Shown: positions 1-19,726 of the stretch, piece after piece
Layout of the letters: every line of letters starts with the position of its first letter
Numbering within the stretch: position 1 is the first letter of the stretch
Assembly: GCA_030430425.1 (NCBI GenBank)
Contig: JAUIFS010000001.1
Coordinates: 5,992 to 69,991 of the forward strand
Direction: 5' to 3'
DNA: 64,000 bases
Origin: a bacterium
GTDB lineage: Bacteria > Patescibacteriota > Minisyncoccia > Phycocordibacterales > UBA918
Position numbers and translations under genes: made by a program
Notes under the pieces: generated by a model
The model's database searches: none
The model's input: only the letters and a program-made list of their open reading frames with translations
Told to the model about the DNA's origin: nothing

Positions 1-829
1 TCAACGATCGGAGAATTTCGAGCTTGGTGGTGTATGACTTCCCTGCTCCAGAAGTTGCAAAGGTTACCGAGTTGTAGTTAGTCAGCTGGTATCGGTCAAA
101 GAGTACCAATGAAGAGTTGTGTCGATTGATACCGTAGAGGATACCTGTATCAGAGGTCAGGTCAAACGAGGTAAAGGGAAAGAAACTTGAAAGTGGCGAA
201 GAGTTGAACTTGCTGTGTACCATCAACTGGTCGTCCATAAACGGCAACGCACTCTTCATGCCTTGTTCTTGTTGGAACTGGGCTGGTTTGATGTAAATAA
301 GACGTGAGTCAAGAATGTTTTTTATTTCATTTTCCGTTTTGTTGAGTTTTGACTCGTCCTCGCTGTAGATGGTCATGTAGAGACCCACATTAAACAACTT
401 CTCCTCTGCTTGTTGGAGCTTATCGCGCAGGTCTTCAAGGTTGCGATATGCAGCTTCTAGCTGCGGGTCACGCACCATACCTTGCTCGGCACGACTGTTT
501 ATTTGGCTTTGTACCTCAGCTACTTTTTTTTGGAATTTCTTAAGAGTACTTGCGGTATCGATTGGGTGTACAAAAATAGATACATCCATTTCTTTTTCCA
601 TATCGAGAATTGGCTCAAGCCACCCATCGTTGAGATATCGTGGATAGGAAATGGTGAAGAATGTACGAGCGTAGGTGCCGCTTATATTGATGGTTCGCTG
701 CCCTATTTCGATTCCAGACGGTGCAACGACGTCTTCAAGGGTGAGTAGCGCATGAGACACATCAGGAGTGTCTTCCTGAGTGGTGTTTGTTTTTTTTGCT
801 GCAGGTTGTAAAAAGTCTAAAAGCCCCAT
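1..829 (-). CDS. virB4: VirB4/TrbE/PrgJ-family type IV secretion ATPase, N-terminal about 276 aa; gene continues past window start
   Basis: Hand translation of minus strand from ATG at 829..827 gives MGLLDFLQPAAKK...VAPSGIEIGQRTINISGTYARTFFTISYPRYLNDGWLEPILD...DVSIFVHPID...SLVLFDRYQ...TSGAGKSYTTK (Walker A). The layout matches the central region of Gram-positive VirB4 homologs (PrgJ/TcpF). No stop reached before position 1. Confidence 0.75.
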   Translation of the reverse strand, partial: MGLLDFLQPAAKKTNTTQEDTPDVSHALLTLEDVVAPSGIEIGQRTINISGTYARTFFTISYPRYLNDGWLEPILDMEKEMDVSIFVHPIDTASTLKKFQKKVAEVQSQINSRAEQGMVRDPQLEAAYRNLEDLRDKLQQAEEKLFNVGLYMTIYSEDESKLNKTENEIKNILDSRLIYIKPAQFQQEQGMKSALPFMDDQLMVHSKFNSSPLSSFFPFTSFDLTSDTGILYGINRHNSSLVLFDRYQLTNYNSVTFATSGAGKSYTTKLEILRSL

Positions 830-871
830 ATGTCACTAGTATAACAGTCGTTGCGCGTACATCGGTCAGTA

Positions 872-1519
872 CTACCCACGTTGTTGTTCAGGAGCAGAAC
901 CGCTGATATCGGCAGGGTTGAAGATGTGGTAGTACAGCTCCACCAACGCCTCGTCTTCAAGCGCAATGGTACGCACACCGATGCGGTTCAGCCCTTGCTC
1001 TACCAGTGATGCACGTTGTTCCAGTTGCAGGCGGTGTTCCTCAAACGATGCGTCGTCTTGCTGCGGTGTTTTTTTGTTTCCGAGCACAGAACTTAAGCCA
1101 CTGCTGACGTTTTGCAACTCAACTCCGCGAGGTGAATACGGGATGACAATAAAAAAGTTTTTACTCATGACGTCTACCTCACTGACAAAACTTTTAATGA
1201 AATCGATGTACTCACGCAGCTGGATACGCATAAGGTCGTTATCTTGTTGCGGTTCGCGCGCACGTAGTTGATCGAGGTACGGCTCAATATCAAGCCGTCG
1301 TGATTGGATATAGAACTGAATGGAGAAATCGAGTGTGTTGAGGAATGTTTGGAATTGCCCGAGGATTGCCCGCTGTTCATCGAGCGACTTTAGTGCGAAG
1401 TTGATGGATGATGCAAGCAGAATACTACACATACGACCATCTTTCATAATCACGACATTTTGTTTAATGTCGCGGATGGGAACAAACTCCTGTGTTGTTT
1501 TTTGTTTTTGTTGTGCCAT
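872..1519 (-). CDS. VirB4 N-terminal-domain-like protein (215 aa), same frame as downstream ATPase ORF but separated by stop codons
   Basis: FVPIRDIKQNVVIMKDGRMCSILLASSINFALKSLDEQRAILGQFQTFLNTLDF resembles the N-terminal CagE/TrbE/VirB4 domain of PrgJ-like proteins. Ends at TAG 872..874. Confidence 0.6.
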   Translation of the reverse strand: MAQQKQKTTQEFVPIRDIKQNVVIMKDGRMCSILLASSINFALKSLDEQRAILGQFQTFLNTLDFSIQFYIQSRRLDIEPYLDQLRAREPQQDNDLMRIQLREYIDFIKSFVSEVDVMSKNFFIVIPYSPRGVELQNVSSGLSSVLGNKKTPQQDDASFEEHRLQLEQRASLVEQGLNRIGVRTIALEDEALVELYYHIFNPADISGSAPEQQRG

Positions 1520-1520
1520 A

Positions 1521-1952
1521 TTATTCAGCTTTTTGTAGTGCAGTTAGTTCAAGTTTTCGCGATAGGCTATTGATACCGCCTCCGTTGCGGTGTGGTGTCG
1601 GGATGTTTGTGGGTGTAGCACTTTTTTCAGGTATGTTTTCACTTTGATAGACGTTTGCGTTGCGTTTTCTCCAGTAGTAGATACGCGTTGAACCATAGAA
1701 CGTAATTGCCGACTCGAGGAAAATAGAAAAGGGGCGGTTATTCACTGGGTAAAACGCAAGCAGTGCAGCAAGCCCAGCAGCAGGAAGTCCAATAATTGCA
1801 AAGAGTATTTTTGAGGTGATAAAGGTGATCACTGCAATACCAATACCGCCACAAAGATACACAAACTGCCGCCAGGTGAACGGACCAAAAATCTTATCTT
1901 CAATTTCAATAAACTGAGGAACTTCAAATCGCATATTGCTTGTATTATACAT
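1521..1952 (-). CDS. PrgI/VirB3-like small membrane protein of T4SS (trimmed from the 237-aa track ORF)
   Basis: MRFEVPQFIEIEDKIFGPFTWRQFVYLCGGIGIAVITFI motif followed by two TM helices, typical of the PrgI family. The long form overlaps upstream gene 2023..2808 and the hairpin at 1993..2021, so the start was moved to the internal Met (1952 or 1934). Confidence 0.45.
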   Translation of the reverse strand: MYNTSNMRFEVPQFIEIEDKIFGPFTWRQFVYLCGGIGIAVITFITSKILFAIIGLPAAGLAALLAFYPVNNRPFSIFLESAITFYGSTRIYYWRKRNANVYQSENIPEKSATPTNIPTPHRNGGGINSLSRKLELTALQKAE

Positions 1953-1992
1953 GCTCTGTGCCGACGCGGGAGAGAAACTGTGCCCAGGCACT

Positions 1993-2021
1993 AAAAACCC
2001 TAGGATTATCCTAGGGTTTTT
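1993..2021. terminator. palindromic hairpin aaaaaccctaggattatcctagggttttt
   Basis: Perfect 10-bp stem flanked by an A-run and a T-run, between gene 2023..2808 and the PrgI-like gene. Confidence 0.5.
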
Positions 2022-2022
2022 A

Positions 2023-2808
2023 TTACTCATCGGTGTAGGTTGGTTTTTCAACCAGTGGCGGTTTCTCTGTAAGCAGATCGTCCTGTGATGCACTACGGAT
2101 AACTTCCTCAGTATGTTCCTGCTGCCCTGCTTCGTCAGGATAGAGGTCACGGTACGCACCATAACCATGTATACGAGAAACATCAGTGGGCATGCTACGC
2201 ATGGGTTGTACGTCTTTATATGCTTCCACTTCACTCGGCAGCTCGTTTGAAAACGTAAGCGGTTGTGCTTCTGGAAGTTCTGCAGAAGGGATTGGTCGTT
2301 CGTTTGATGTTTCTGCTGCGGGTGTTGTGTGTGCTATCGGTATGTTTGTTGGTGCAGGTGCAGTTGGCGCAGTTTGCATAGGAGTTTCTGGTGCGGTCAT
2401 GTCTTCAGGAGTATCTGGCACCTCGTCTGCTTCACCGTGTATTGCTTCTTCACGCAATGCTTTAAAGTTTTGTTGGAGCTCTTGCAGTCCCGAACGGTCC
2501 GGCTCCCCTTCCTTGCGCTCACGGTCTTCAACTGGTTTGAGAAACTCTGAGAGTTCAGAGAGGATGCGTTGTGCCTCATCTGCACTCACCCCTAGTTCTG
2601 ACTGGAGTTTTGCAGGGAGTTCAATCGTTTTATAGATACCGAGGATGGTGTCACCGATAAGGTACGTCAATATGTCTGATTTAGTGGGTGCTTGTGTAGG
2701 ATTAAAAATAGTTTCTAATTTTTGTCCAAGTTCAGGAGAGTTGTACACATCCCAAAGAGTGTCTGAAAGAAGGTGTTTTTTGTTTCTTCGCAGTTCTTCT
2801 AAAGTCAT
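2023..2808 (-). CDS. acidic Pro/Thr/Ala-rich hypothetical protein (261 aa) inside T4SS module
   Basis: Long ORF with a low-complexity acidic C-terminal half (PAPTNIPIAHTTPAAE...). No recognizable family. Confidence 0.5.
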   Translation of the reverse strand: MTLEELRRNKKHLLSDTLWDVYNSPELGQKLETIFNPTQAPTKSDILTYLIGDTILGIYKTIELPAKLQSELGVSADEAQRILSELSEFLKPVEDRERKEGEPDRSGLQELQQNFKALREEAIHGEADEVPDTPEDMTAPETPMQTAPTAPAPTNIPIAHTTPAAETSNERPIPSAELPEAQPLTFSNELPSEVEAYKDVQPMRSMPTDVSRIHGYGAYRDLYPDEAGQQEHTEEVIRSASQDDLLTEKPPLVEKPTYTDE

Positions 2809-2816
2809 ATTGTTTC

Positions 2817-5294
2817 TTATTTACCAAATGATTTACCCCCTGGAGATTTAAGCCAATTGATTATTTCTACTCCCCGCTCAGTTTCTCTGGATGAGGCATT
2901 TGCTGGTAAATTGTTAACATAGTTTTCTAAGTGGGTACGAATATCTTTTTGGGCTGATACGTCAAGTTCTGCAAAAGCTTTTGATTTAATAACTGATTCA
3001 GGTAGTGCTTCAACAAAATCTTTTTCTTTGAAAGCACCTTTTGGCAACTTTGCAATATCTCCTGCCTTTCTTTTCAGAATATTGGCTCTGGTTACCCCAT
3101 CTACTACTCCGCCACGCACCACTTTGAGAACAGCCTTTTCGTGTTCTTGTTTCAGGGTATCTTTATGTGCTTCAACCATCTTTAGTTTGTCGATCTTGTC
3201 TGTGGACAGATGGATTATGTTTTCTTCTTTTTGAAGTTCTTCGAAGCCAACAGCATTAAGCTCATCTGTACTTGCTTTTGCAAAACCTTTTCCAGGTTTT
3301 GCAGCGTCTCCTTTGATATACTTTACGGTTTCTTTTTTGTGTGCTTTTTGAATTTCACCTGTTTCAGTTTCACCAACATCGTCGCTCTTTACAATTGCTT
3401 CAAGCTTAGCAGGGGTTAAGAGGTGGGCATTGTTCATAATAGCTTTACGCCCGTCCTTAGTTTTTGCAATTTGCATAAGTTGTTCAGAAGTTGCGTTTTG
3501 GAATGCTTGTTGACGAGTCGCTTCGTCTGATGAAGACATGTCAGACTGTATCTTTCTTCTTGCAACTGTTGCTGTGTGTTTTTTAGATTCAGCCTTGTCT
3601 GCATCAACACGTTCTTTCCGTGAACCAGCAACACCAAAAGAAGCACTTTCCCCCTTTCCAACAAAAGAACGCATTGCACGTCGTGCGCGAGAGCGAGGTT
3701 TTCCTCGAGCATCATCCCGTGCATCCATCCGTTTCCCTTGCCAATTTGCAGCTTTACCAACGGCAGCACTTGCTCCCCAGCTTGCTCCATATCGAGGTAC
3801 CCACGTTGCTCCATTTCTCATACGACGCAAAGCTCCCTGTGTGGTATTCATAGCAACATTTGCGCCTTGGACACTCATACTTTGTCCAACTTTTGTTGCA
3901 GCGATAAGGAAACCAACTCCAATTGCAAAGAAGAGAAAAATAGTGAAGGTGTCTTTTGTCCATGTTTCACCAATAGAGCTAGCATATTTCCCTGTCCCCA
4001 TTGTCCCTTTTAATTGGATCATAGTGTAGAGACCAATATAGAGCATAAAGATATACGCCGGCGCAAAAAAAGCATAGCCAATAAACTTTTTCCACCACAT
4101 ATCAGAGTACTGCTTGAAACTAGGCAGTACCCACCCAAGGAACATGGCAGGAGAGAAGATCATAAAAATAATCAATGCAATAAACCGAGACACAAGCATG
4201 AGCCCGCCAAATGCGAGTGTCATCCCGAGAATAATGGAGAATAGGAGTACCATAATAGAGAACAATACAACCTGCCCGACTTCTTTCAGCGGATTTCCTG
4301 AAAACCAGCTTGAAATACGCAATGTCTCCATGTATGCAGACGCGATGCTCTTACCGTCAGCTGTGTAGCCTCCCCCGGCGCCTTGCGAGTTTACCGCGTC
4401 ATCTCCATCGAGGGTAACTTCACCTACTTCAAAACCATACGTTCCTTTGATACCTTGCGTTGCAACTGAGTGTATTGCAACTGCAGTATAGTTTGCAACG
4501 TCAACAATAACTTTTGTGAAATAGAGACTGAAGTTGATCAGTAGTGCGGCAACAATCAGCCACCCAAGTGCACGTTGAGTGCCAGTATCATCAGCAGAAA
4601 GGATTGTTTTTAAACCAATCCATACGAGCGAAAAGATGAAAAGAATGTTGAAAAGGTCGCGCACCACTGTCCATAGTGCATTTACGACCGCACCTAAAGA
4701 GCCATTACCTGCACTTTCTGCACAACCTTGTCCTCCATCTTTTACAAACCAACAACCCATTTCGAGTACCACTTTCTGTACCGCAAGGTCAAAAATGCTC
4801 CCACCAAGTGCTATCACCCATCCGCCCATTGCTACAGAAATATTGTATATCTTACTCTCTGTTTCATCGGCATTAACAGCATTTGTTTGTTGTGAGGCAT
4901 GTTCAGCAGCTGCAGCAACTGCGTCAGGGACATCTGCTGAGGTAAGTCCTGTTCCGGTGTCTTGACCCGGGGTAGATGGGTCAGAGGTACCGTCTGAGCC
5001 ACCACTTGTGTCGCCAATTCCTGTGTTGCCGGTACCTCCAAATGCATCAATTTCATCTTGAGTCCCATCGCCTGCTACACCTCCACAAGGGTATGGGTCA
5101 CCAAAGGCGTTATAACAAGTAGATTGTGCCTGCGCCGCCTGTGGTAGTGATAGAAAAAAATAGGAAACAAAAAAGAGACATACAGCAAAAACAACGAATA
5201 TACGCAAAAAGAAGTTCATATGACGCTGCATGAACATACCCATATAGGTCTTATTGTACCCTGTTTTCTGTTGTAAGAAACAGTATCTCCCCAC
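2817..5294 (-). CDS. VirB6/TrbL/PrgH-like polytopic membrane protein (825 aa) with signal peptide, Gly-rich segment and long charged C-terminal tail
   Basis: N-terminal hydrophobic signal (LFFVSYFFLSLPQAAQA), then at least 6 predicted TM helices (e.g. VVLFSIMVLLFSIILGMTLAFGGLMLVSRFIALIIFMIF) and a roughly 350-aa K/R/E-rich tail. It sits immediately upstream of the PrgI-like and VirB4 genes, as prgH does before prgI-prgJ. Confidence 0.5.
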   Translation of the reverse strand: MGRYCFLQQKTGYNKTYMGMFMQRHMNFFLRIFVVFAVCLFFVSYFFLSLPQAAQAQSTCYNAFGDPYPCGGVAGDGTQDEIDAFGGTGNTGIGDTSGGSDGTSDPSTPGQDTGTGLTSADVPDAVAAAAEHASQQTNAVNADETESKIYNISVAMGGWVIALGGSIFDLAVQKVVLEMGCWFVKDGGQGCAESAGNGSLGAVVNALWTVVRDLFNILFIFSLVWIGLKTILSADDTGTQRALGWLIVAALLINFSLYFTKVIVDVANYTAVAIHSVATQGIKGTYGFEVGEVTLDGDDAVNSQGAGGGYTADGKSIASAYMETLRISSWFSGNPLKEVGQVVLFSIMVLLFSIILGMTLAFGGLMLVSRFIALIIFMIFSPAMFLGWVLPSFKQYSDMWWKKFIGYAFFAPAYIFMLYIGLYTMIQLKGTMGTGKYASSIGETWTKDTFTIFLFFAIGVGFLIAATKVGQSMSVQGANVAMNTTQGALRRMRNGATWVPRYGASWGASAAVGKAANWQGKRMDARDDARGKPRSRARRAMRSFVGKGESASFGVAGSRKERVDADKAESKKHTATVARRKIQSDMSSSDEATRQQAFQNATSEQLMQIAKTKDGRKAIMNNAHLLTPAKLEAIVKSDDVGETETGEIQKAHKKETVKYIKGDAAKPGKGFAKASTDELNAVGFEELQKEENIIHLSTDKIDKLKMVEAHKDTLKQEHEKAVLKVVRGGVVDGVTRANILKRKAGDIAKLPKGAFKEKDFVEALPESVIKSKAFAELDVSAQKDIRTHLENYVNNLPANASSRETERGVEIINWLKSPGGKSFGK

Positions 5295-5375
5295 GTTGAC
5301 AGCTTTGTGTATGTGGGTTTATACAAAAGCGGTCACCGATAGGTGGCCGCTTTTGTATATAGGGTATGTAATTTA

Positions 5376-6848
5376 CTAATCGTCGTTGCAAGAGAGCTTT
5401 AAGAGATCAATTTGTTGTTTAAATGTTCCAATCTGTTGGGTAATTTCATAGTCAATGTGTATCTTTAAAAGATCATTTTCTGCAATATCTACCACACGAC
5501 CCCTAGACTTGAGCTTGTTGTACTCATTTATAATACTCGTTTGTTCTTGCGGGTCGGTTGATGCGTCAAAGCGGTTGCGTAGTGCGATAAGTTCGGGGAG
5601 TACTTGCTGTGAGTTCAGCTGTGCCAAAACCGCATTTGCACGTTCGGTACGTAAGCCGTTGGGTACTTCAGGGATAACGCATTTTTGATTGAGCTTTGCA
5701 GTATTGTCTCGATAGGTCACCAAGTCATCTATAAGTGTGACAATCTTTTTTTGCAACGTGATGTGTTTTTGCTCACGCGTAACTGCAGGACCAATTGGGT
5801 TTTCAATGCTTCCCGCTTCGGTTCCTTCGTCTTTAAGACTGTCTAAGAATGATCGCCCGTCACTTCCTTCAAAAGAAGTGTCGGTGTATTCTGAGCTGCC
5901 GAGTCCGAGCAGTCCGTTCATGCCGGTAATTGCTTGTTGCGCAAGTTGTGCAAAGAACGCCCCGATGATCTCATTGATTTCGTCTGCTTCAATAAGTGCA
6001 TCTTGTCCTGCACCGAGTGACTTATTGACTTGGTCAGCAATAACCTGTCCTGGCGTGGTGATATCACAGTCAGTTTGTGCTCCACTTGCAACGTCGGTGT
6101 CGCTACATACTTTGAAGGATAAGAATCCATCTCCCCAGTCAAGTTCTCGTACGGTATTTCCTTCTGCATCAGCAATACGTGCGTACATTTCTTGTTCCGC
6201 AGCAAGGTATGCTCCGGTCGGCGTGTTGATAGGGTTTTGGGTGACTTCAAACCAGTTTTGTGGATTGTAGGAATCCCCCGCGAGGAATCCTTCTATATTG
6301 TCAGCAACTCCACTGAGGGTACATTGTGCTTCGCTGCCAAACCCCTCATGTGTTTCTTCTTGGTAGGTAGTGGCAAGTGCAATTTTTACGTCGAGCTGGA
6401 ATGGACTACATAAGAAGTTAAGTGCAGGATCATTGTATATAAAGTCGCCTACTAGTGCGTCTGCTTGGTCAAGTAAGAACTGCTTGAGGTCGGTCACAAA
6501 CGCAGGACTTCCTTGGAACCCGGAGTTAATCCAGTTGAGGATACTCTGGGTCATGCTCTTGAGAATCATTTTTGCAAGTGCATGTGCAATTGGGTCGAGT
6601 GAAAGTTCTTTTAAAGCTAGAGATGTCTGCAGTCCTGCAATGGTGGTGTTTGCGCCGGCACTAATGGTGTCTTGTACCGTACCGTTACCTCCAATGACAG
6701 TTACTGTATCGCCTGTGCCTAAGAATGCATGTGCTTTCTGTACCTGTGCATCAGGGGTTATGGGTGTAAATCCAACACTGACAAAAACAAGTATGAAGAG
6801 TGAAACTCCGCTTATAGATTTTTTTAAAAAAGAACGTGGATATTTCAT
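5376..6848 (-). CDS. secreted hypothetical protein (490 aa) with N-terminal signal peptide
   Basis: MKYPRSFLKKSISGVSLFILVFVSVGF... signal-like N-terminus; no recognizable domain. Co-oriented with the T4SS module. Confidence 0.6.
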   Translation of the reverse strand: MKYPRSFLKKSISGVSLFILVFVSVGFTPITPDAQVQKAHAFLGTGDTVTVIGGNGTVQDTISAGANTTIAGLQTSLALKELSLDPIAHALAKMILKSMTQSILNWINSGFQGSPAFVTDLKQFLLDQADALVGDFIYNDPALNFLCSPFQLDVKIALATTYQEETHEGFGSEAQCTLSGVADNIEGFLAGDSYNPQNWFEVTQNPINTPTGAYLAAEQEMYARIADAEGNTVRELDWGDGFLSFKVCSDTDVASGAQTDCDITTPGQVIADQVNKSLGAGQDALIEADEINEIIGAFFAQLAQQAITGMNGLLGLGSSEYTDTSFEGSDGRSFLDSLKDEGTEAGSIENPIGPAVTREQKHITLQKKIVTLIDDLVTYRDNTAKLNQKCVIPEVPNGLRTERANAVLAQLNSQQVLPELIALRNRFDASTDPQEQTSIINEYNKLKSRGRVVDIAENDLLKIHIDYEITQQIGTFKQQIDLLKLSCNDD

Positions 6849-6859
6849 ACGCAGAAGTA

Positions 6860-7660
6860 CTAATTGTTTTCGTTAATACTGATAACACTATAGACAACCG
6901 AGTTGGCGTTCCAGGTGATACCTTGGGTAACTAGTGTTGCATAGAGTCCGTTAAGCGATACAAGCAGGCCGGTAGCATCATCTTGATAGCGTTTGAGTCG
7001 CAGCAGTGCGAGCATGGGGTCGGAAAAGGCATTACGCATAGCAGTGATGTCCGAAAGAATTGCTTGGTAACTGTTGAGTAGTGCAAGGTGTTCTTGCACC
7101 ATGCTGCTTGGTACTGAAAGGTTTTTTGTGGTGTCTACATACTGCGAGTATGCGTCGATCTTTGCATCGAGTTTTTTAAGATCATCACCATTTTGGGAGC
7201 GCAGTGCTTGCACAAGAATGTCTGTTTCTGATTGTGTGCCGTCTTCAGAATATGAAACGACAATAGATGCGATCGCTTCTCCGTATGCGGCTAATGCCTC
7301 AGGAGAATTGTTGGTGGTGATTACAATGTCTGCAGGGGTAAAAAGTGTGTCAGTAGCTTCCTGTGCAAGTGTGTCTGCAGCATTGGCAACAAGTTCATCA
7401 GGCGCGGTGCCGAATGCTCCATAGTTTTCAGAGCGTACAATATCTTGGAAGAAGTCGAGCGCAAATTGTTCGGTTACGGTCTCAGGAGGTACGTAGTCTG
7501 CACCGGGTTCACCTGTTATTGCAAGTGGCTCAGTAATCTGCAACGCTTCCTGCCAATCAGGAACACCGTCCCCATTTTGATCTAGTTCGGGGAGTGCTCT
7601 TCGTTCAGGTGCGAAGAAAAAGTGCACCGGAGATAAGGACTGCGGTAAAAAGTAAAGCAA
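6860..7660 (-). CDS. hypothetical protein (266 aa); possible N-terminal signal anchor encoded in another frame upstream (7606..7688)
   Basis: Track ORF starts at TTG. An ATG at 7688 opens MSASQKRISLALLFTAVLISGALFLRT* in the +1 frame across a T5 run, suggesting a frameshift or sequencing error. Confidence 0.5.
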   Translation of the reverse strand: MLYFLPQSLSPVHFFFAPERRALPELDQNGDGVPDWQEALQITEPLAITGEPGADYVPPETVTEQFALDFFQDIVRSENYGAFGTAPDELVANAADTLAQEATDTLFTPADIVITTNNSPEALAAYGEAIASIVVSYSEDGTQSETDILVQALRSQNGDDLKKLDAKIDAYSQYVDTTKNLSVPSSMVQEHLALLNSYQAILSDITAMRNAFSDPMLALLRLKRYQDDATGLLVSLNGLYATLVTQGITWNANSVVYSVISINENN

Positions 7661-7795
7661 GTGAAATTCGTTTCTGTGATGCAGACATATGAACTGTATA
7701 CATATATAAGTATACCAGCGGATCGGTGCTGGTGGCTTAGTGTGTGTATGAAGCTGTGGTTAACTCAGTGGATAACGCTGTATACAATATATGTA

Positions 7796-8620
7796 CTACT
7801 GGTGTGCGGACAGTGTAGAAGTTAATGTAAGCCATTTTTCAAGAGGTACATCCTCTGCACGTGCTGAAACAGGTATCGCTGCTGTTGAAAACATGTGTAT
7901 AAGTGCTTCTCGTGGGTATTGTTTTGCAAGGTTGCCAAGCAACTGCTTACGTTTTTGTCCAAAACCAAGGTGTAATACGTTGAAAAACAAGGTCTCATCG
8001 ACAGTTTTGAAGTTGTGCCGGTTAATGTTTCGTATCGCGATAATACCAGAATCTACTTTTGGAGGTGGCGTGAAGTGACCCCTTGAAACTGTCTTCACAT
8101 AGGTAGGGTTTCCGTATGCCTGCACCGAAAGAGAGAGGAGTGACTCTTTCTCCCCTCTCGAGATGTTACTACATGCTCGTTTTGCAACTTCTTTTTGCAC
8201 TAAGTACACAAGATCTGTTGGTTGTGTATCTAATTCTAAAAAGGTGCGAAACAGAAGCCCCGACAGATAATACGGTATATTGGCAACGACTTTAAAGTTA
8301 CGTTCAGCAATCTGCGGTAGGTCCGTACGCGCAAGCGTGCGCACATCGCGGTGCAATAGTATCAATTGTTTTTGTGTAAGGGCGTCTGCAAAAGTATCTT
8401 GGAGTACTGCAATTGCACGCGTGTCTGCTTCGAGGGCGATCACTGTTGCGCCGCGAGAAAGTAGTTCTTTAGTGAGCACTCCAGTCCCCGGACCAATCTC
8501 AAGGACAAGATCATCTTTCTGTACGTCTGCTGCATCACACATCCAACCAGGAACGACTGCACTGGTAAGAAAGTGCTGCCCGAGGGATTTCTTCGCATCA
8601 ATTTTTTTGATATCTACCAT
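7796..8620 (-). CDS. rsmA: 16S rRNA (adenine1518/1519-N6)-dimethyltransferase RsmA/KsgA
   Basis: LGQHFLTS..., VLEIGPGTGVLT SAM-binding motif, about 270 aa. Confidence 0.9.
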   Translation of the reverse strand: MVDIKKIDAKKSLGQHFLTSAVVPGWMCDAADVQKDDLVLEIGPGTGVLTKELLSRGATVIALEADTRAIAVLQDTFADALTQKQLILLHRDVRTLARTDLPQIAERNFKVVANIPYYLSGLLFRTFLELDTQPTDLVYLVQKEVAKRACSNISRGEKESLLSLSVQAYGNPTYVKTVSRGHFTPPPKVDSGIIAIRNINRHNFKTVDETLFFNVLHLGFGQKRKQLLGNLAKQYPREALIHMFSTAAIPVSARAEDVPLEKWLTLTSTLSAHQ

Positions 8621-8709
8621 ATGCGCCTACAGTACGTAATCTTCAAGCATAATGCAACGCGTTAGAGAGAACCATACTATCTCAGTTAACTGAGATAGTT
8701 GTCGGTTGT

Positions 8710-8749
8710 ATGCAAAAACGTGCGGCATGTATGCCGCACGTTTTTGCAT
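8710..8749. terminator. 40-nt perfect palindrome atgcaaaaacgtgcggcatgtatgccgcacgtttttgcat
   Basis: Immediately downstream of the helicase gene end (8753, minus strand); A-run/T-run flanks. Confidence 0.6.
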
Positions 8750-8752
8750 AGG

Positions 8753-10732
8753 TTAGTCGAGGAATACTGTTGTTTCGTATCCTGAGGTTCCCGCGTTTCC
8801 AAGCAGTCCCCCGCTCCCTTCTGTGGAGGTGCTGATTTGCACGTACTTGTTACTTATGTCGTTAAGGAAAGAAGAAGGAACGTTTACACGTTGTTGCCCA
8901 AAGATGGTGCGCATATGTGCGTAGGTAAGAAAAAGTTTTTTTTCTGCACGAGTGAGCGCAACATAGAACAGTCGGCGCTCTTCTTCTTCGTCAATACCGG
9001 TATTGTCCAAACGCTCATGCGGGAAGAGTCCTTCTTCCATACCAGTGATAAAGACATACGGGAACTCAAGACCTTTTGCAGCATGTACCGTCATGAGACG
9101 TACTGCGTCTCGGTCTTCTTTTTTCTGAAGTTCGTCTTGGTCACTCTGGAGCGCAGCATTTTCAATAAGTGCCTCCACACCCTCTTCAGGACCAAGCTCA
9201 TCGTAGCGTACTGCAAGGGTGACCAGTTCCTGCAGGTTTTCTAGGCGCTCAAGATCTTCTTCAGTACCATGTTTTTTTAAGTCAGCTTCAATTCCGGTTC
9301 GTGAAATGATGAACTTTAGTGTCTCTGAAATCTTTTCGGTTCGTGCATGATCGGCAATGTCTTGCATCATCGCATCAAAGCGTTCTACCTTCTCAAGCGT
9401 TGCACCTTTGAGTTCATCGCGCCTGCCCTCAAGTACTTTCAGCATGGTTACTTTCCCGATTCCCCTTGTGGGGGTATTGATGACACGGGTGATGTCCGCC
9501 GTACTCCCTGGGTTTAGTGCAAGGCGAAGGTACGAGAGTATATCTTTGATTTCTTTTCGTTCAAAAAACTTTGTACCTAAAAGTTGATAGGGGACGTTAA
9601 AGTTTAAGAATGCTTCTTCAAGTATGCGTGATTGAAAGTTTGTGCGATACAGTACCGCAATTGAGGAAGGAGAAGCACCGTCCTCAATGAGTGCCTGTAT
9701 GGTCATAACGATATACTCAGCTTCATCGTAGCCTGAGCGTGCCGCGTGGAGGGTTATTTTTTCTCCCTCTTTGTTTGAAGTGAATACGTTCTTCGGAATA
9801 CGATTTGTATTTTTCTCAATAATGTCATTGGAGGCCCCAATAATGGTTCCTGTTGAACGGTAGTTTTCTTCAAGGAAGACACTTTTTGCACCTTCAAAAT
9901 TATTTTCAAATTGCAGTACATTTTTTATGTCTGCCCCACGCCAAGAATAAATGTTTTGGTCGACATCTCCTACAACACATATGTTGTTATGTGCCTGTGC
10001 GAGTAGTTTAATGATTGCGAACTGGACTTTATTGGTGTCTTGGTATTCATCAACATGAATATAGCGGTAGCGCTGTTGGAGTGTTTCTCGTACGGTTGGG
10101 TACGCCTCAAGCATGCGTAATGTTTTTAATAAGAGGTCGTCAAAGTCGAGTGCTTGATCTTGCGCGAGTGCTTTGTCGTAATGTTCCCATACTTCAGCAC
10201 AGACTTTTTCTGGGTACGATGACGCAGTTTCTAAATAGTCTGTTCGTGAAAGTGCATCACCCTTCGCACGCGAGATCATTGAGAGCATTTTCCGAGGTTC
10301 AAATTGCTTTGGGTCATATCCTGCCGTTTCGATTGCTTTTTTGATTGCTCGATTGCTGTCACTACGATCATAAATGGTGAAATGTCGTGGGAGGTTAACG
10401 GTTGCATGGTGTTCACGAAGTGTCCGCACTCCAAACGCATGAAAGGTAGTGACAGTAGGTGTTGAATCGACACCTGCTCGGCTGCTTTCGGCGTAGGTGG
10501 CGATGAGTGCTTGTACGCGCTCACGCATTTCGGTAGCTGCTTTGTTGGTGAAGGTAACTGCAAGGATGTTGTGAGGAGCTACACCGTTGAGGATAAGGTG
10601 TACGATACGGTGGGTGATCACACGTGTTTTACCTGAACCCGCTCCTGCGAGCACAAGAAGGGGTCCTTCGGTAGTGGTAACGGCTTCTTTTTGTGGATCA
10701 TTTAACTCGGCTATGTGTGCTTGTTCTGACAT
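8753..10732 (-). CDS. uvrD: UvrD/PcrA/Rep-family ATP-dependent DNA helicase
   Basis: LLVLAGAGSGKTRVITHRI Walker A, VDEYQDTN, and the other superfamily 1 helicase motifs; 659 aa. Confidence 0.9.
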   Translation of the reverse strand: MSEQAHIAELNDPQKEAVTTTEGPLLVLAGAGSGKTRVITHRIVHLILNGVAPHNILAVTFTNKAATEMRERVQALIATYAESSRAGVDSTPTVTTFHAFGVRTLREHHATVNLPRHFTIYDRSDSNRAIKKAIETAGYDPKQFEPRKMLSMISRAKGDALSRTDYLETASSYPEKVCAEVWEHYDKALAQDQALDFDDLLLKTLRMLEAYPTVRETLQQRYRYIHVDEYQDTNKVQFAIIKLLAQAHNNICVVGDVDQNIYSWRGADIKNVLQFENNFEGAKSVFLEENYRSTGTIIGASNDIIEKNTNRIPKNVFTSNKEGEKITLHAARSGYDEAEYIVMTIQALIEDGASPSSIAVLYRTNFQSRILEEAFLNFNVPYQLLGTKFFERKEIKDILSYLRLALNPGSTADITRVINTPTRGIGKVTMLKVLEGRRDELKGATLEKVERFDAMMQDIADHARTEKISETLKFIISRTGIEADLKKHGTEEDLERLENLQELVTLAVRYDELGPEEGVEALIENAALQSDQDELQKKEDRDAVRLMTVHAAKGLEFPYVFITGMEEGLFPHERLDNTGIDEEEERRLFYVALTRAEKKLFLTYAHMRTIFGQQRVNVPSSFLNDISNKYVQISTSTEGSGGLLGNAGTSGYETTVFLD

Positions 10733-10983
10733 ACGTGCGCATAACTATATCATGTATATCCAGTGTACCTAAAAAAGAGGTACCGTACCGAGGGTAAAAA
10801 ATTATTCAATATAACTTACTGATGTCAATGGGATTATCGGCGCTAATATAGGGCATATTTTTATACTTTTTGCAGCACAGTGGAAAAGTGTAATACGTCA
10901 ATTGACCACTCAGTGCGGTTTAGTATTATTATCCGCATACCTCATTTGGTATACGTTACAGCGATGTAACAAGGGAGGACCTC

Positions 10984-12165
10984 ATGGTCCTTTTTACATG
11001 CAACGGAAGCAACAATACCGTAACGGGCGCAACACGGCGGAGAGACCATAACCAAAAACGTATAAAACAGATTTCACAAGACCCTGATCCCTCAAGTAGT
11101 CAGCGCATGAGTGCGCGCGATGATCAGGATACATATATAAGTAGCACTTCGGCTCGGGCGACGATTTTTGCCTCAGAGCTCATTCCTTTACTTGCAGTGC
11201 TACTGATCCCCTTTTCTGTGCATGCAGGAGTTTTCTCTTCAATGGCGCAGTTTTTTATAGAATCAGAAACCACTGAAGTTGCACGTGCTGAAGTTGATTA
11301 TTCAGCCCGCTACACGCCACTGCTTACCGCAACCATACAAGCCGATCCACAAAAAGCGATTGGTGGTGGTGACCTTGCGGTGTCTGACGGCGCACTTGTT
11401 TCTACCGGTCCGGTTGGTGAAGATGAAATAGCAGCGTCAAGCGCAAGCGCTGGAGAAATCAGCGTGTATGTCGTACGTGAAGGTGATTCGCTATCACAGA
11501 TTGCTGAGATGTATAACGTCACTACTAATACTATTTTGTGGGCAAACGATATTTCACGTGCAAGTGACATTCAGCCGGGCGACACACTCGTTATCCTCCC
11601 TATTGTGGGAGTGCGTCATGTAGTTGCTTCTGGTGAGACCCTTGGTTCTCTCTTAAAGAAATACGATGCAGATCTTGACGAGGTGCTGGCGTACAACAAT
11701 CTTTCTGAAGACGCAGTGCTTGCTGTTGGTGATGAGTTGATGATTCCTGGTGGTGAACTACATACACCCCGTACTGTTGCAAAACGACCGGCACCAAGTA
11801 AGTCTCGTGGCGCTACTGGCGGCGGAGGTTTTTCTCATCCTGTGCCTGGTGCGGTGCGTACCCAGGGTATTCACGGATACAACGCGGTTGACCTTGCTGC
11901 AGGTCACGGAACTGCTATCCGTGCCGCAGCAGCAGGAGAAGTTATTGTGTCTAAGGCAAGTGGTTGGAATGGCGGATACGGACAGTATATTGTAGTGCGA
12001 CACAACAACGGTACACAGACACTCTATGCACACCTCAGTGCAAACAACGTTGGTGTTGGTGCATGGGTTGGATCAGGACAAGTTATTGGTGCAATGGGTA
12101 ACACGGGTAAGTCCACGGGAACGCACTTACACTTCGAAGTACGTGGAGGAAGCAACCCCTTTTAG
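10984..12165 (+). CDS. LysM-domain M23 family metallopeptidase with N-terminal membrane anchor
   Basis: Strong SD aagggagga 5 nt before the ATG. Two LysM repeats (GDSLSQIAEMYNV..., GETLGSLLKKYDADLDEVLAYNNL) then M23 motifs HGYNAVDLAA...HLHFEV. Confidence 0.85.
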   Translation: MVLFTCNGSNNTVTGATRRRDHNQKRIKQISQDPDPSSSQRMSARDDQDTYISSTSARATIFASELIPLLAVLLIPFSVHAGVFSSMAQFFIESETTEVARAEVDYSARYTPLLTATIQADPQKAIGGGDLAVSDGALVSTGPVGEDEIAASSASAGEISVYVVREGDSLSQIAEMYNVTTNTILWANDISRASDIQPGDTLVILPIVGVRHVVASGETLGSLLKKYDADLDEVLAYNNLSEDAVLAVGDELMIPGGELHTPRTVAKRPAPSKSRGATGGGGFSHPVPGAVRTQGIHGYNAVDLAAGHGTAIRAAAAGEVIVSKASGWNGGYGQYIVVRHNNGTQTLYAHLSANNVGVGAWVGSGQVIGAMGNTGKSTGTHLHFEVRGGSNPF

Positions 12166-12220
12166 AAAAGTTTGAAAAGTTGGCGGATATCTTTGTCTCG
12201 CTACATAAAATAAAAGTTCA

Positions 12221-12247
12221 CCGTACGTTACGTACGGCTCTTTTTAT
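12221..12247 (+). terminator. hairpin ccgtacg-tta-cgtacgg followed by ctcttttta
   Basis: Stem-loop plus T-run just downstream of the M23 peptidase gene. Confidence 0.45.
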
Positions 12248-12399
12248 TTCATTTATGCTCCTCGAGCTCCATTCAATTTTTCAACCTTTTGGATCTCTTC
12301 GATATATTCATACAAAAAGGCGCTCGCCCTACTTCGTAGGTCTCGCGCCTTTTTCGTTCCGTGTCTTGTGGCAGCCGCTAAATAGCGGGCGGTCGCGAG

Positions 12400-13323
12400 C
12401 TAACTTGAGTTTTTAACCAAATCTATTCTTTTATACATTAAATCTTTAAATTTTTTATTTTCTGTATTTACCCACTTCATAGCGGCCCACACCACATCAT
12501 TGGTTCTTATAATTTTTTCATTCGCTTTCATATCGAGTGTTAAGGATTCTTTACTGCATTTAAAATAATAAGCACATCGTTCGATCAAGAAACTGAGCTG
12601 ATCTGGGCTAAAATTTCCATGTATTTTTATATAAGAAAGCCCAAAGAAGTTAGAAATACACGCATGCTCAAAATCATAAAAATTAATTTTACCATCAGTG
12701 TCGATAATCAACTTCGACTGAATATCTCCCCAGGCAAAACCTAACCTTCTTTCAGCCTTGTTTACATTTTCTAGGTATTTCAAGTTTTCTTTCAGTGTAG
12801 TTTCTATCCATACAGTAATTTCTTCTGGGAGGGTACCCTTCTTTGCTTCTTCAAAACGATTAAACCCGTATAGCTTTATACTTTCAATTGGATCAACATA
12901 GTCGTAAAACCTTAAGCCATTACTTTTGCAGAAAGCAACAAAAGCAGAAACATCTAGAGTAAACAGCTTGTGTAGCTGGCGAGCAAATGAATCAATTTGA
13001 TCATTAGAGAGATCTCTTTGTGACACAAGCTCACCTTCTATAAAGTTTTCGATAAGATAATTTTTGTCATAATCATAAAATAGAGCTCTCGGACAAAAAT
13101 CTATACCCTCATTTTCAAAGTACCTGAGAAAAGAATTTTCTTTCTCCAAAGAATCTAAGAATTGAGGCTCGGTTGACTTCTTTAATCTCAACACAAATTT
13201 TTGTCCATTTTCTTCAAGTAAATAGTTTTCATTACCGAATCCTTCTGCTAAAAAAACCACATTGGGGCTACTCACTAACGATGATCTCTTTGCAAGTTCT
13301 GCCACTTCTTCATTTGTTTTCAT
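12400..13323 (-). CDS. phosphotransferase-fold (APH/choline-kinase-like) protein kinase-like enzyme, AT-rich gene
   Basis: GFGNENYLLEENGQKFVLRLK (nucleotide-binding loop plus Lys), AWGDIQSKLIIDTDGKINFYDFEHA (catalytic loop and DFE/DFG-like motif). Local GC is clearly lower than in neighbouring genes. Confidence 0.55.
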   Translation of the reverse strand: MKTNEEVAELAKRSSLVSSPNVVFLAEGFGNENYLLEENGQKFVLRLKKSTEPQFLDSLEKENSFLRYFENEGIDFCPRALFYDYDKNYLIENFIEGELVSQRDLSNDQIDSFARQLHKLFTLDVSAFVAFCKSNGLRFYDYVDPIESIKLYGFNRFEEAKKGTLPEEITVWIETTLKENLKYLENVNKAERRLGFAWGDIQSKLIIDTDGKINFYDFEHACISNFFGLSYIKIHGNFSPDQLSFLIERCAYYFKCSKESLTLDMKANEKIIRTNDVVWAAMKWVNTENKKFKDLMYKRIDLVKNSS

Positions 13324-13410
13324 TGTAATGATTGTAACAAACCAGCACGAAACATAATGTCTCGTGCTAGCTCTAAACTGCGCGTGGTCTTGGATTCAAA
13401 CTAGAATATT

Positions 13411-14928
13411 TTATACACGAACCCTATACTGTAATGCCTCATATACATGAGGTGGTTGTATATCGTTTGAGTTGTCTAAATCAGCTATCGTCCGAGCAAC
13501 TTTAATAACCCGATGGTAGCTCCGCGGAGAGAGGTTGAGTTTCTCGCTACTCGTGCGGAGGATGTGCTGTACTTCACCGCTGAGCGTGATAGTTTCCTCA
13601 ATGTCACGTGCTGAAAGTTCAGCGTTTGTATACGTGCCACGTTTTTCTCCTCGTGCACGCATCATGTTTCTTGCGCTTTTGATTTGTTCTCGTGCACGCG
13701 CAGTCTCTCCAGTATTTGTTGTGGTAGTAGTGAGCGTGTCGTAGTCAACATGCGGTACTTCAAGCCAGAGGTCAATACGGTCAAGAATTGGTCCAGAGAT
13801 TTTGCCTTTGTATGTTTCAAGCATGGCGCTCGCAAAGTCGGTAGTCCCATCCTCACTCCCCCGATAGGGATTCATTGCTGCAATGAGAATAAAGTCTGCA
13901 GGAAACAGCGCGGTCCCTTGTACGCGAGAGATAGACACGACGCGGTCTTCAAGCGGTTGCCGCAGTGCATCAATACTCCGTCGTTCAAACTCAGGGAATT
14001 CATCGACAAACAATACTCCCTTGTGCGCAAGTGTGACTTCCCCCGGGCGAGGGTGCGCGCCACCGCCGACCAATGAAGTGTGACTTGCGGTGTGGTGTGG
14101 TGCACGAAACGGAGGCTGCGCGGAGACATTATTTTCATATACCCCCGCAACGGAATGAATTGCGGTAACCTCGAGTGCTTCCTCTCGTGATAGTGGCGGA
14201 AGTATTCCCTGAAAGGCACGCGCGAGCATCGTCTTCCCTGTCCCCGGAGGACCAACCATGATGACATTGTGTCTGCCTGCCGCAGCAATAAGAAGACCTC
14301 GCTTTGCAGCCTCTTGTCCTTTAATGTCTTCCAGTCGTGTAAGTCCGTCATGCCACTGCTCTTCCATGTGTGTGAGCTCTTGAACTGGCAGACAGCAGTG
14401 TTTTTCTTCATCTTTAGTTATATGGTGTACAACGTCCATAAGCGTACGTGCTGGGTAGATGGTTATGCCTGCAACAAGTGCTGCCTCCTGTGCATTGTCT
14501 TTAGGAACAATAACTTCGCTATAGCCGTGTTCTTTTGCTGCTTGCACAATAGCAAGTACTCCCCGCACTCCGCGTAGGTGCCCATTGAGAGAAAGCTCTC
14601 CCACATACATGCGCGAAACGTCAGTGGTGGACACTTCCTCTGCTGCGATGAGGTACGCAATGGCAATAGGGAGGTCGAACAGAGGTCCTTCTTTTTTAAG
14701 GTCAGCAGGCGCAAGTGAAATAGTTATTTTATGGTTCTTACTTTTTGGAGATGGAAAACCACTATTTTTTATCGCCGCACTGACACGGTCTTTTGCTTCT
14801 TCAATTGCTTTTCCAGGAAGTCCCACAATGGAAAATGAATGCAGACCTCGGGTGAGGTCTGCTTCAATAGTTACCGGTACACCTCCGGTAACAGTTCCTT
14901 GTGCAGTGTGTGTGGTTGCGACTGCCAT
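13411..14928 (-). CDS. comM: YifB/ComM family Mg-chelatase-like AAA+ ATPase
   Basis: Lon-like N-terminal domain, Walker A VIMVGPPGTGKTMLARA, and the C-terminal ComM helix-hairpin region; 505 aa. Confidence 0.9.
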   Translation of the reverse strand: MAVATTHTAQGTVTGGVPVTIEADLTRGLHSFSIVGLPGKAIEEAKDRVSAAIKNSGFPSPKSKNHKITISLAPADLKKEGPLFDLPIAIAYLIAAEEVSTTDVSRMYVGELSLNGHLRGVRGVLAIVQAAKEHGYSEVIVPKDNAQEAALVAGITIYPARTLMDVVHHITKDEEKHCCLPVQELTHMEEQWHDGLTRLEDIKGQEAAKRGLLIAAAGRHNVIMVGPPGTGKTMLARAFQGILPPLSREEALEVTAIHSVAGVYENNVSAQPPFRAPHHTASHTSLVGGGAHPRPGEVTLAHKGVLFVDEFPEFERRSIDALRQPLEDRVVSISRVQGTALFPADFILIAAMNPYRGSEDGTTDFASAMLETYKGKISGPILDRIDLWLEVPHVDYDTLTTTTTNTGETARAREQIKSARNMMRARGEKRGTYTNAELSARDIEETITLSGEVQHILRTSSEKLNLSPRSYHRVIKVARTIADLDNSNDIQPPHVYEALQYRVRV

Positions 14929-14930
14929 AG

Positions 14931-15305
14931 TTATGAAGGAAGTTGTGATTCGTTATCGAGGTCAGCTTTGCACGTCCGTGCTGCGGGATTTACTGAAAGC
15001 CGGTCTTCCTCAATTTCATTTTTACATAGTTCACAGGTCCCATACGTACCTGCGTCAATTTTGGAAAGCGCACGTTTGATATTGTTGCATCGTGTTTCGA
15101 GAGCACTGAGTGTTCCGCGGCGTTCTTGCCAGGCTTCAGAACGGTCGCCAAAATCATTTGGATCGGATTCATTTTTTGAAGGTTCCTCTGGCGTGGTGAT
15201 CCAGTCTTCGGGTGCGTTTGGATTTTGTACTCCAAGCTCTTCTAAGGAATGTGTTATTTCTGCTAGTTCTGTTTCGAGTATTTTTTTGTATGCTGATGTC
15301 TTCAT
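14931..15305 (-). CDS. DksA/TraR-family C4-type zinc-finger protein
   Basis: Coiled-coil N-terminus and C-terminal CELCKNEIEEDRLSVNPAARTCKAD with a 4-Cys motif. Confidence 0.7.
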   Translation of the reverse strand: MKTSAYKKILETELAEITHSLEELGVQNPNAPEDWITTPEEPSKNESDPNDFGDRSEAWQERRGTLSALETRCNNIKRALSKIDAGTYGTCELCKNEIEEDRLSVNPAARTCKADLDNESQLPS

Positions 15306-15330
15306 ATACAGACAGTATACCGCATGTGCT

Positions 15331-17199
15331 TTACTGACCTATCAAAGGGAGTAGCTTTACAAATGTTTCTGAGTCAGGAGTAATCAGAATCATGTTTTGC
15401 TTTATAAAAGAATAGATGAGTCGCTCAGAGTTTGTTGCATCGACCAAGACGCGTGCGCTCTTGTTTGCAATGACCGTATCTCTAAAGAAGGCAGTGCGTA
15501 TTTGGGTGTCTGTTCGAGCGTATGGGTCATACGATTCTGATACGGGTGAACCAAACAATGGTGAGAGGTCGCTACTGAGCACGGGTTCCCACTGCAACAT
15601 ACCTGCAAAACTCGTGTCAAAATTAGTTGTTTGTATAAGTATGAATGGTTTTGTGCCATCAATACTGCCGAACATTATTTCTGAAATATCACGTGTGAAT
15701 GATCCTGGTGTACGCAACGCCAGTGAGTTGAGGATTGTTTGCGCATCAGCAGGAATGGTTTTTCCAGACGTATCTTGCATTGTTGGGTATATTTGTATGG
15801 TTTCACGACTTGTCAGAGACGCGTTAAGTATTGACTGGAATGTGGCATCTTTACTGGTGTGTAACGTCACCGGAATTTGCTGTGTGGTTTGTAGTAATGA
15901 AGGAATACGGATTGGTGCCGCTTGTTCAGCTGGCGTGGAACCCATAAACATGTAGACACTTGTTCCGATACCAAGTAAAGAGGCACCAACAATAACAAGC
16001 CCATAGATATATATCGGTACTCGAGATGGTCTTGTAGCTGTTTGTGTTTCGGCAGAAGGTTGTAGGCGAGGAGTTTTTGTCTCAATTGGTTTCTTTTGCA
16101 GCACTGGTGTTGCTACAGGATCTGCTTTAGGTACAGCTGAAACCGGTGGCGTGTTGGACACTGCTGTTTTTGCTGCAGGAGGCTGCGTAACGTTGCGTTG
16201 GACCGTAGAGGGTGTTTCCGCAACCGGTGTCGGTGTTTTGGTTTCTTCCTTTTCTTGCGCACGATCAAATACCGGCTTTGGCGGTGGACCTTGTGCAACA
16301 ACACGTTCTTGCAACAGTGTATCAATAGGGTCTGCGACCTGTTCTTCAGGAACTGCTGCAGGAGCATTTTCTTGTTCAGGCATTTTTAAGGTGCGTACAT
16401 CAACTGGAGTTTCGTCGGTGGTATGTGTCCAGGTGGGAGCAGGTACGTCTTCTTTTTTCTTGATACCAACACTTGTTTTGGGAGCTTCTCGTTTTTTTGT
16501 GGTGAGTCGTTTTACCGTAATGCCGTGATCATTTTGTGGCACGTGATAACTGGCGCGTGCTGCTGCTGCAATAGTTGCAATACGCGTTTCTGCTTTACTG
16601 ACCATGTGTTCAGGTTCTTTTTGTTTGGTGAGTATTTCTTTTTTTGTGCCAAACCAATTTTGAAGCGATGCTCCAATTGCAGGCAATAGCCGAAACTTCT
16701 TTCTTTTTTTGTTTTGGATGATGGTTCCCTCTACTGCATCGTCATGGAGAGAAATATTTTGTGGTGCCTGGTTCAGCGTTGTGGCATCTGAAAAATTCCC
16801 CTCAATCTGTGCAACTTCATTTGCTAATGTTGTAGTATCAACAACAAGTTTTTTGGGTTTTGGTGCAGATGCAACAACTTCTGCCGCAAGCTTTTCTTTA
16901 CTCAAAATCTCCTCTGCTTTTGAAACAATAGGCGCAGCTTCTTTTGGAACAGGCATCGTTGCGTCACTTGCAGCAAGAAACTCTGAGGACTTTTTTACTT
17001 TCTCTCTTTTTCGATCAAGTGCTGCTTGCGGGAGCTTTGTTTCTTTAGGAGTGGCAAGAATAGCGTCGGTGCGTTGTTGTACCGATTTTTCTTCTTGTTT
17101 GAGTACGGGACGATTAGGCACTTCTTCACCACGTGCGCGTAGAGCGTCAGTGGTATAGGTGCGTATACGTGCAATGGAATGATCATTCCCTGTTGTCAT
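15331..17199 (-). CDS. hypothetical bitopic membrane protein (622 aa) with long Pro/Ala/Thr/Lys-rich cytoplasmic region and about 200-aa extracytoplasmic C-terminal domain
   Basis: Single TM segment (PIYIYGLVIVGASLLGIGTSVYMF). The N-terminus is low complexity; no family recognized. Confidence 0.55.
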   Translation of the reverse strand: MTTGNDHSIARIRTYTTDALRARGEEVPNRPVLKQEEKSVQQRTDAILATPKETKLPQAALDRKREKVKKSSEFLAASDATMPVPKEAAPIVSKAEEILSKEKLAAEVVASAPKPKKLVVDTTTLANEVAQIEGNFSDATTLNQAPQNISLHDDAVEGTIIQNKKRKKFRLLPAIGASLQNWFGTKKEILTKQKEPEHMVSKAETRIATIAAAARASYHVPQNDHGITVKRLTTKKREAPKTSVGIKKKEDVPAPTWTHTTDETPVDVRTLKMPEQENAPAAVPEEQVADPIDTLLQERVVAQGPPPKPVFDRAQEKEETKTPTPVAETPSTVQRNVTQPPAAKTAVSNTPPVSAVPKADPVATPVLQKKPIETKTPRLQPSAETQTATRPSRVPIYIYGLVIVGASLLGIGTSVYMFMGSTPAEQAAPIRIPSLLQTTQQIPVTLHTSKDATFQSILNASLTSRETIQIYPTMQDTSGKTIPADAQTILNSLALRTPGSFTRDISEIMFGSIDGTKPFILIQTTNFDTSFAGMLQWEPVLSSDLSPLFGSPVSESYDPYARTDTQIRTAFFRDTVIANKSARVLVDATNSERLIYSFIKQNMILITPDSETFVKLLPLIGQ

Positions 17200-17249
17200 G
17201 TTCTATAGTATCGCATGGTTTGTTTTTCTTGCTAAGGTACGTTATATAC

Positions 17250-17280
17250 AAAAGACCGGAGGCGTTGCCTCCGGTCTTTT
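17250..17280. terminator. hairpin aaaagaccggaggc-gttg-cctccggtctttt
   Basis: Perfect GC-rich stem with flanking A- and T-runs, downstream of the pnp stop (17287). Confidence 0.65.
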
Positions 17281-17286
17281 GTATAG

Positions 17287-19437: not shown

Positions 19438-19544
19438 TATGAAATTGTATTTATAAGATCTGCAAGTTTCAGATTAGAACACACATGTGTGGTAACCTGC
19501 CTACTTGCAGACCTTTTGAATAACGTACTAACGATACCAATAAA

Positions 19545-19571
19545 GGCTGGAAACGTAAAACGTTTCCAGCC
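19545..19571 (-). promoter_or_regulatory. stem-loop ggctggaaacg-taaaa-cgtttccagcc in pnp leader
   Basis: Perfect 11-bp stem about 110 nt upstream of the pnp start. Candidate RNase III/autoregulatory hairpin, by analogy with rpsO-pnp leaders. Confidence 0.35.
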
Positions 19572-19668
19572 ATATGTTGCAAGCTCCAACTTGTTCCTGT
19601 TGTAAACTTTTGCATGTTTCCTAAACTTTATTTTATTTTCTCCCCACTGTTGTACACAAGGGCATTAA

Positions 19669-19712: not shown

Positions 19713-19726
19713 AGTTTCTTCTAAAG

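Follow-up and report, generated by a model that had tools for sequence, protein, structure and literature searches.

In Patescibacteria no T4SS component is more abundant than TrsD, whose gene usually adjoins virB4; of 2272 TrsD homologues, 1664 occur in association with VirB4 (Quiñonero-Coronel et al. 2025, Microb Genom 11:001409, PMC12102498). According to the same study, the protein displays a remote homology to the N-terminus of VirB4, outside Patescibacteria it occurs only in the pGO1 subclass of MPF-FATA, and the homologue in Ca. Southlakia epibionticum ML1 is given as essential; the T4SS of Patescibacteria is reported there, with reference to Wang et al. 2023, to be essential for epibiotic growth (PMC12102498). 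The staphylococcal TrsD/TrsE pair of pGO1, the MPF-FATA prototype, likewise comprises a protein of ca. 200 aa with homology to the VirB4 N-terminus. A comparable division is found on plasmids of Bacillota, in which genes for PrgI, a TrsD-like protein of 257–274 aa and a VirB4 of ca. 620 aa lie in this order. In the unsplit VirB4 proteins, represented by the CD1110 family (NF045971), TrwK of R388 (PDB 7o41/8rtb) and the homologues P0141 and P0252, the same domains follow one another in the same order and with the same total length, but in one polypeptide instead of two.

The window, i.e. the whole 64,000-nt stretch of DNA analysed here, carries at its beginning what is very probably a normal trsD–virB4 pair of a Patescibacteria (monoderm, MPF-FATA-like) T4SS, with both proteins being made. 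The locus comprises the following features.

1931..1521, minus strand: prgI gene, coding for a VirB3-like protein and adjoining trsD on its upstream side, with its likely start at ATG 1931 (MRFEVPQF...)
1519..872, minus strand: trsD-like gene (N-ORF), coding for a stand-alone protein of 215 aa, the stop codon TAG 874..872 included in the span
871..830, minus strand: trsD–virB4 intergenic spacer of 42 nt (14 codons), read directly from the sequence
846..838, minus strand: candidate extended -10-like box, TGtTATACT, with its end 8 nt upstream of ATG 829
829..1, minus strand: 5' part of the short virB4 ATPase gene (C-ORF), 276 codons visible, start codon ATG 829..827

As in the published Patescibacteria pairs, virB4 is directly preceded by the gene for a stand-alone TrsD-like protein, PrgI/VirB3 is encoded nearby and the location is chromosomal; no substantive difference from those pairs is seen, and the window is another instance of them. 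The first-pass annotation described two ORFs in one reading frame, a 215-aa ORF followed by a VirB4 ATPase part restarting at ATG 829, and this description holds on the minus strand. The frame shared by N-ORF and ATG 829 stays open to window position 1, where virB4 is cut by the window edge and not by biology, its orthologues being intact and ca. 600 aa long; the Walker A motif SGAGKSYT lies near position 1, at the end of the visible ORF. The spacer contains three in-frame stop codons, TGA 868–866, TAG 838–836 and TGA 835–833. The four stops counted earlier are thus obtained only when the TAG terminating N-ORF is included, and they come in the order TAG, TGA, TAG, TGA rather than TAG, TGA, TGA, TAG as had been given. 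It was also correctly noted that no SD precedes the restart, the 20 nt ahead of ATG 829 being devoid of any SD-like motif.

The VirB3-like neighbour expected of a virB4 gene is encoded at 1931..1521, whose product matches PrgI (PF12666) in Pfam with 37.4 bits against a gathering score of 27 (E 3.8e-9). A mechanically called prgI ORF of 237 aa starting with GTG (1521..2234, minus strand) overlaps the upstream gene for a 261-aa protein by ca. 210 nt; the true start of prgI is probably ATG 1931, with a perfect TATAAT ending 9 nt upstream of it. Further upstream, three genes are oriented in the same way, 2023..2808, 2817..5294 and 5376..6848 (all on the minus strand), none of which has any Pfam or NCBIfam match. 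The first codes for an acidic, Pro-rich protein of 261 aa, the second for a protein of 825 aa that has numerous hydrophobic segments and is rich in Gly, Thr and Asp in its N-terminal region, and the third for a protein of 490 aa with an N-terminal hydrophobic segment. They presumably encode further T4SS components, the 825-aa product being possibly a VirB6-like channel protein. Genes for KsgA, a UvrD-type helicase, PNPase and a Xer-type recombinase lie around the T4SS cluster, which is thus flanked by housekeeping genes and therefore chromosomal.

The assignment of the two ORFs to VirB4 is based on family profiles. The earlier suggestion that the 215-aa ORF matches the VirB4 N-terminal region is borne out by its matches to two NCBIfam models, VirB4_plasma (profile positions 99–244 of 894, E 4e-11) and CD1110 (NF045971, positions 2–121 of 752). 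The same two models are matched by C-ORF further downstream, CD1110 at positions 164–438 (E 4.7e-48) and VirB4_plasma at positions 268–539; the TraC-F-type and VirB4_CagE profiles of NCBIfam are matched by C-ORF as well, and together with the Walker A P-loop these matches identify it as a short VirB4. In Pfam, TraC_F_IV, the model of the VirB4 N-terminal domain, is covered by N-ORF at positions 40–174 and by C-ORF at positions 278–374. N-ORF and C-ORF thus map, on these profiles, as colinear and non-overlapping pieces of one VirB4, with the TrsD-like protein as the counterpart of the first ca. 210 residues of the unsplit protein. When the two window ORFs are summed, Walker A falls at about residue 470, as in unsplit VirB4. 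The possibility that N-ORF and the start of C-ORF are tandem duplicates was considered and dropped (hhalign probability 0.2%). There is no profile similarity between N-ORF and the start of C-ORF, which means that TrsD does not duplicate something that C-ORF has retained.

The relation of N-ORF to TrsD is seen in both the gene arrangement and the sequence. Its product is a stand-alone protein of the ca. 200-aa class (215 aa) encoded immediately upstream of virB4, 42 nt away, with homology to the N-terminal portion of VirB4. It matches the NCBIfam TrsD/TraD model NF041427 over positions 9–143 of 201 (E 1e-7) with 32 bits, far under the curated cut-off of 200. By this comparison, the window protein is related to the staphylococcal and enterococcal TrsD/TraD proteins, but the link is a remote one and the protein is not a family member by the NCBI rule; for pGO1, the gene order compared here is taken from the literature. 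Pfam PF26593 was not returned for the window ORF by the Pfam scan, while it is the precomputed label of all the best 120 of 4930 N-ORF homologues.

These 4930 homologues came out of a search through 5.8 billion proteins; the best 120 of them, with 67–100% identity, are all stand-alone proteins of 204–232 aa. An identical 215-aa protein (P0001) and a 99% identical one (P0002) are on record from other assemblies. A look-up of the exact 215-aa sequence returned no recorded contig. An exhaustive HMMER search over clusters formed at 50% identity gave 2380 families, and among the best 150 of them two appear as fusions with the ATPase, P0141 (797 aa) and P0252 (898 aa), of 36–45% identity; the junction in P0252 carries a linker of ca. 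100 residues that is rich in Pro and Ala. Many representatives of the TrsD family carry C-terminal extensions of 50–230 residues past a conserved domain of ca. 205 residues, e.g. P0158 (432 aa), P0208 (406 aa) and P0264 (443 aa).

The fused protein P0141 shows how the two window ORFs correspond to a complete VirB4. Its residues 6–213 align with N-ORF (45% identity) and residues 226–475 with C-ORF (49% identity), its TraC_F_IV match (169–394) spans the junction, and its residues 451–746 align to residues 445–733 of TrwK; it also matches the structure of the VirB4 C-terminal domain, 4ag5 (E 5e-44). The alignments of P0141 and TrwK indicate that N-ORF and C-ORF, taken together, have the length of a canonical VirB4 and keep its register. 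For N-ORF, an AlphaFold2 model was built from an alignment of 47 sequences; it is of moderate confidence (mean pLDDT 69, pTM 0.58). In Foldseek, its 14 best PDB matches are all TrwK/VirB4 chains from the cryo-EM structures of the R388 T4SS, the best of them being 8rtb_A (E 7e-4, probability 1.0, TMq 0.53). The position of the N-ORF product at the very N-terminus of TrwK would follow from the colinearity argument. When the PDB was searched by sequence, neither N-ORF, nor its profile of 47 sequences, nor the C-ORF fragment gave more than chance matches, and the link to the solved VirB4 structures came solely via the fold search and the fused homologue.

Alignment of orthologous loci from relatives, the check proposed in the first-pass annotation, was done by scanning one genome per species, and it returned 80 loci, all from Patescibacteria (Kaiserbacteria, Paceibacteria/Parcubacteria, Nomurabacteria and others). 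In all 80 the TrsD-like ORF ends in a stop codon and the ATPase ORF opens at the homologous ATG. The restart sequence is MG-I/L-L/F-D in most loci and MRLPNF in three. In 75 of the 80 loci the orthologous ORF of ca. 600 aa begins at the residue to which ATG 829 aligns; the five loci outside the 75 tabulated are also split on translation, and in L070 the split consists of TAG, 3 nt and then ATG. Two loci bear the labels 'Patiriisocius sp.' (L004, JBLHQB010000004.1) and 'Acidimicrobiales bacterium' (L006, JBLIMJ010000004.1), while being 75–79% identical to the Patescibacteria-type protein of the window; the odd names probably denote mislabelled or contaminated bins.

The spacers of the 75 tabulated loci have a median length of 5 nt and extremes of -4 (the genes overlapping in ATGA) and 82 nt, most of them being 1–13 nt long; they are unrelated in sequence, and TAA is the commonest terminator. 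The restart lies in frame 0, 1 or 2 relative to the TrsD-like ORF in 19, 23 and 33 of these loci, respectively, so the common frame of the window ORFs is uninformative and can be put down to chance. In L018 and L021 about 400 nt separate trsD from virB4 (L018:6628-7030, L021:6631-7027). The L018 spacer holds a 117-aa gene of the 23S-rRNA-intervening-sequence-protein (23S-rRNA-IVP) family (PF05635, E 1e-35). A second PF05635 gene copy is located just upstream of trsD in L018 (5619..5972), and the L021 spacer begins with the same sequence as that of L018.

Both halves are under strong purifying selection: relative to the closest relative, L001, dN/dS is 0.043 for N-ORF and 0.034 for C-ORF. In the comparisons with the remaining relatives, substitutions at synonymous sites have reached saturation (pS 0.74–0.90), and pN is 0.06–0.24. 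The low dN/dS and pN values indicate that both genes encode functional proteins, and the combination that marks a pseudogene, a lineage-specific disruption accompanied by relaxed selection, was not found.

The split reaches beyond Patescibacteria. A tblastn search against plasmids gave 105 records, mostly from Bacillota. The Pontibacillus plasmid NZ_CP062975 codes for a 274-aa hypothetical protein whose gene overlaps by 11 nt that of a 'VirB4-like conjugal transfer ATPase, CD1110 family' of 621 aa. On pCLJ of C. botulinum (NC_012654), the gene for a PrgI family protein is followed first by that for a 'TraC family protein' of 257 aa and then by that for an 'ATP-binding protein' of 620 aa. The N protein of Pontibacillus aligns end to end with N-ORF (30% identity), and residue 29 of its VirB4 aligns with residue 29 of C-ORF (36% identity); the break thus falls at the same point, and the split either predates the Patescibacteria lineage or is shared with it. 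The Bacillota arrangement differs from that of the window in being plasmid-borne, in the 11-nt overlap of the genes in place of a 42-nt spacer, and in an additional N-terminal extension of ca. 30 residues in the N protein.

The lack of an SD before virB4 has little meaning in this genome. Of 37 gene starts across the window (1..64000), 3 have an SD-like motif, which is the background rate, and hence the absence of one at ATG 829 is uninformative. On the other hand, a TAnnnT motif beginning at -20 to -12 is present at 18 of the 37 starts versus 14% of control ATGs (p = 5e-7), suggesting that leaderless or short-leader transcripts are widespread in the genome. The window belongs to a small long-spacer clade, in which the spacers have lengthened to 35–82 nt and which also includes L001, L002, L004–L007 and L020. 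The spacers of this clade are otherwise unalignable, but a TG-extended -10 box is kept 8–20 nt before the ATG. In L001 it reads TGcTATAAT and occupies the same place as TGtTATACT of the window, while L002, L004, L005, L006, L007 and L020 have TTGnnn, a 17-nt gap and TGcGAnAAT (e.g. L006:6634-6707). The latter arrangement looks like an internal sigma-70-type promoter of virB4 that would have arisen in one clade. A generic sigma-70 scan called no promoter in the window spacer, and over positions 1..8000 it found fewer promoter-like sites than in shuffled sequences; the spacer box was missed because the window has no good -35. The candidate promoter therefore rests on the comparative conservation of the TG-extended -10 box, and not on the generic scan. 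No Rfam element was found in the region.

Of the readings offered in the first-pass annotation, the natural split into a two-subunit VirB4 is the one supported, and the others fail on the same comparisons. An intact virB4 broken by stop mutations, with a decaying pseudogene and a non-functional T4SS as the outcome, could be read from the four in-frame stops within 45 nt and the restart lacking an SD; it is refuted by the split and conserved restart codon in 80 of 80 orthologous loci and by a dN/dS of ca. 0.04 for both halves. Since thousands of stand-alone homologues of ca. 209 aa exist, the same split is found on Bacillota plasmids and about 90% of the window genes have no SD, decay of the gene is highly improbable. 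The unusual appearance of the locus is all that speaks for an assembly or sequencing artefact hiding one contiguous ORF. For this to be so, four separate stop codons would all have to be errors, and yet identical and 99% identical proteins come from other assemblies and the organisation recurs in 80 independently assembled genomes; the probability of an error is practically negligible. Recoding, whether by read-through, a reassigned code or frameshifting, would yield a single VirB4 polypeptide and would fit the frame shared by the window ORFs. The spacer, however, contains TAG as well as TGA, so no single reassignment suffices, and among the orthologues the restart is spread over all three frames, the spacers are unrelated, with TAA as the commonest terminator, and in at least L018 a whole gene is inserted between the ORFs. 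The region, moreover, is free of Rfam elements. Recoding is thus as good as dismissed; like the artefact, with which it had been proposed, it is refuted by the conservation of the split in 80 of 80 loci, by the dN/dS values and by relative frames that vary between species.

The main surviving rival, itself unlikely, is that TrsD is an independent accessory factor, an old paralogue that resembles the VirB4 N-terminus and does not complete the short VirB4. It draws on the literature, which gives TrsD only a 'remote homology' and no assigned function, on TrsD homologues, notably those of Gracilibacteria, that do not adjoin virB4, and on the variable C-terminal extensions that bring many family members to a total of 250–440 aa. 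Against it, the short VirB4 is devoid of exactly the segment that TrsD supplies, the mapping of the two being colinear and non-overlapping; the total length and the position of Walker A match TrwK only for the summed ORFs; TrsD has no similarity to the start of C-ORF; and fused forms exist.

With the locus read as a trsD–virB4 pair, the first ca. 210 residues of the VirB4 N-terminal domain would be made as a separate TrsD-like protein, and the rest of that domain together with the ATPase domain as a VirB4 of ca. 600 aa translated from ATG 829. TrsD would dock non-covalently on the short VirB4, so that the whole N-terminal domain of VirB4 would be rebuilt at the membrane, beside the VirB3-like PrgI, and TrsD would probably also contact PrgI/VirB3. 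In relatives with spacers of 1–13 nt, a single mRNA with translational coupling seems the likelier route of expression. In the long-spacer clade, transcription of virB4 probably starts at a promoter of its own as well; the lack of an SD would then be accounted for by an mRNA with a short leader or none at all. A tentative and rather doubtful extension of this scheme takes TrsD for a detachable N-terminal half of VirB4, possibly in contact with VirB3/PrgI, whose separateness lets the stoichiometry or the order of assembly vary, with the promoter of the long-spacer clade uncoupling virB4 from trsD. As to the origin of the two-gene state, it could be either an ancient fission common to Bacillota and Patescibacteria, or the state of a two-gene ancestor that became fused in other lineages.

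The split arrangement has already been described, and the small ORF is a catalogued component, TrsD; the window locus adds nothing to what is already seen from the published survey and from thousands of arrangements identical to it. What is added to that survey (PMC12102498) by the present analysis is the colinear complementation of the two proteins, the break point common with Bacillota, and the analysis of the spacers and the candidate promoter. In annotation, two genes should be called here, a trsD-like gene and virB4, with no flag of a frameshifted or disrupted virB4. The split gives no ground to doubt that the organism has a working T4SS, and because this system is reported to be essential for epibiotic growth, a mistaken pseudogene call would mislead inference about the metabolism or lifestyle of the bacterium.
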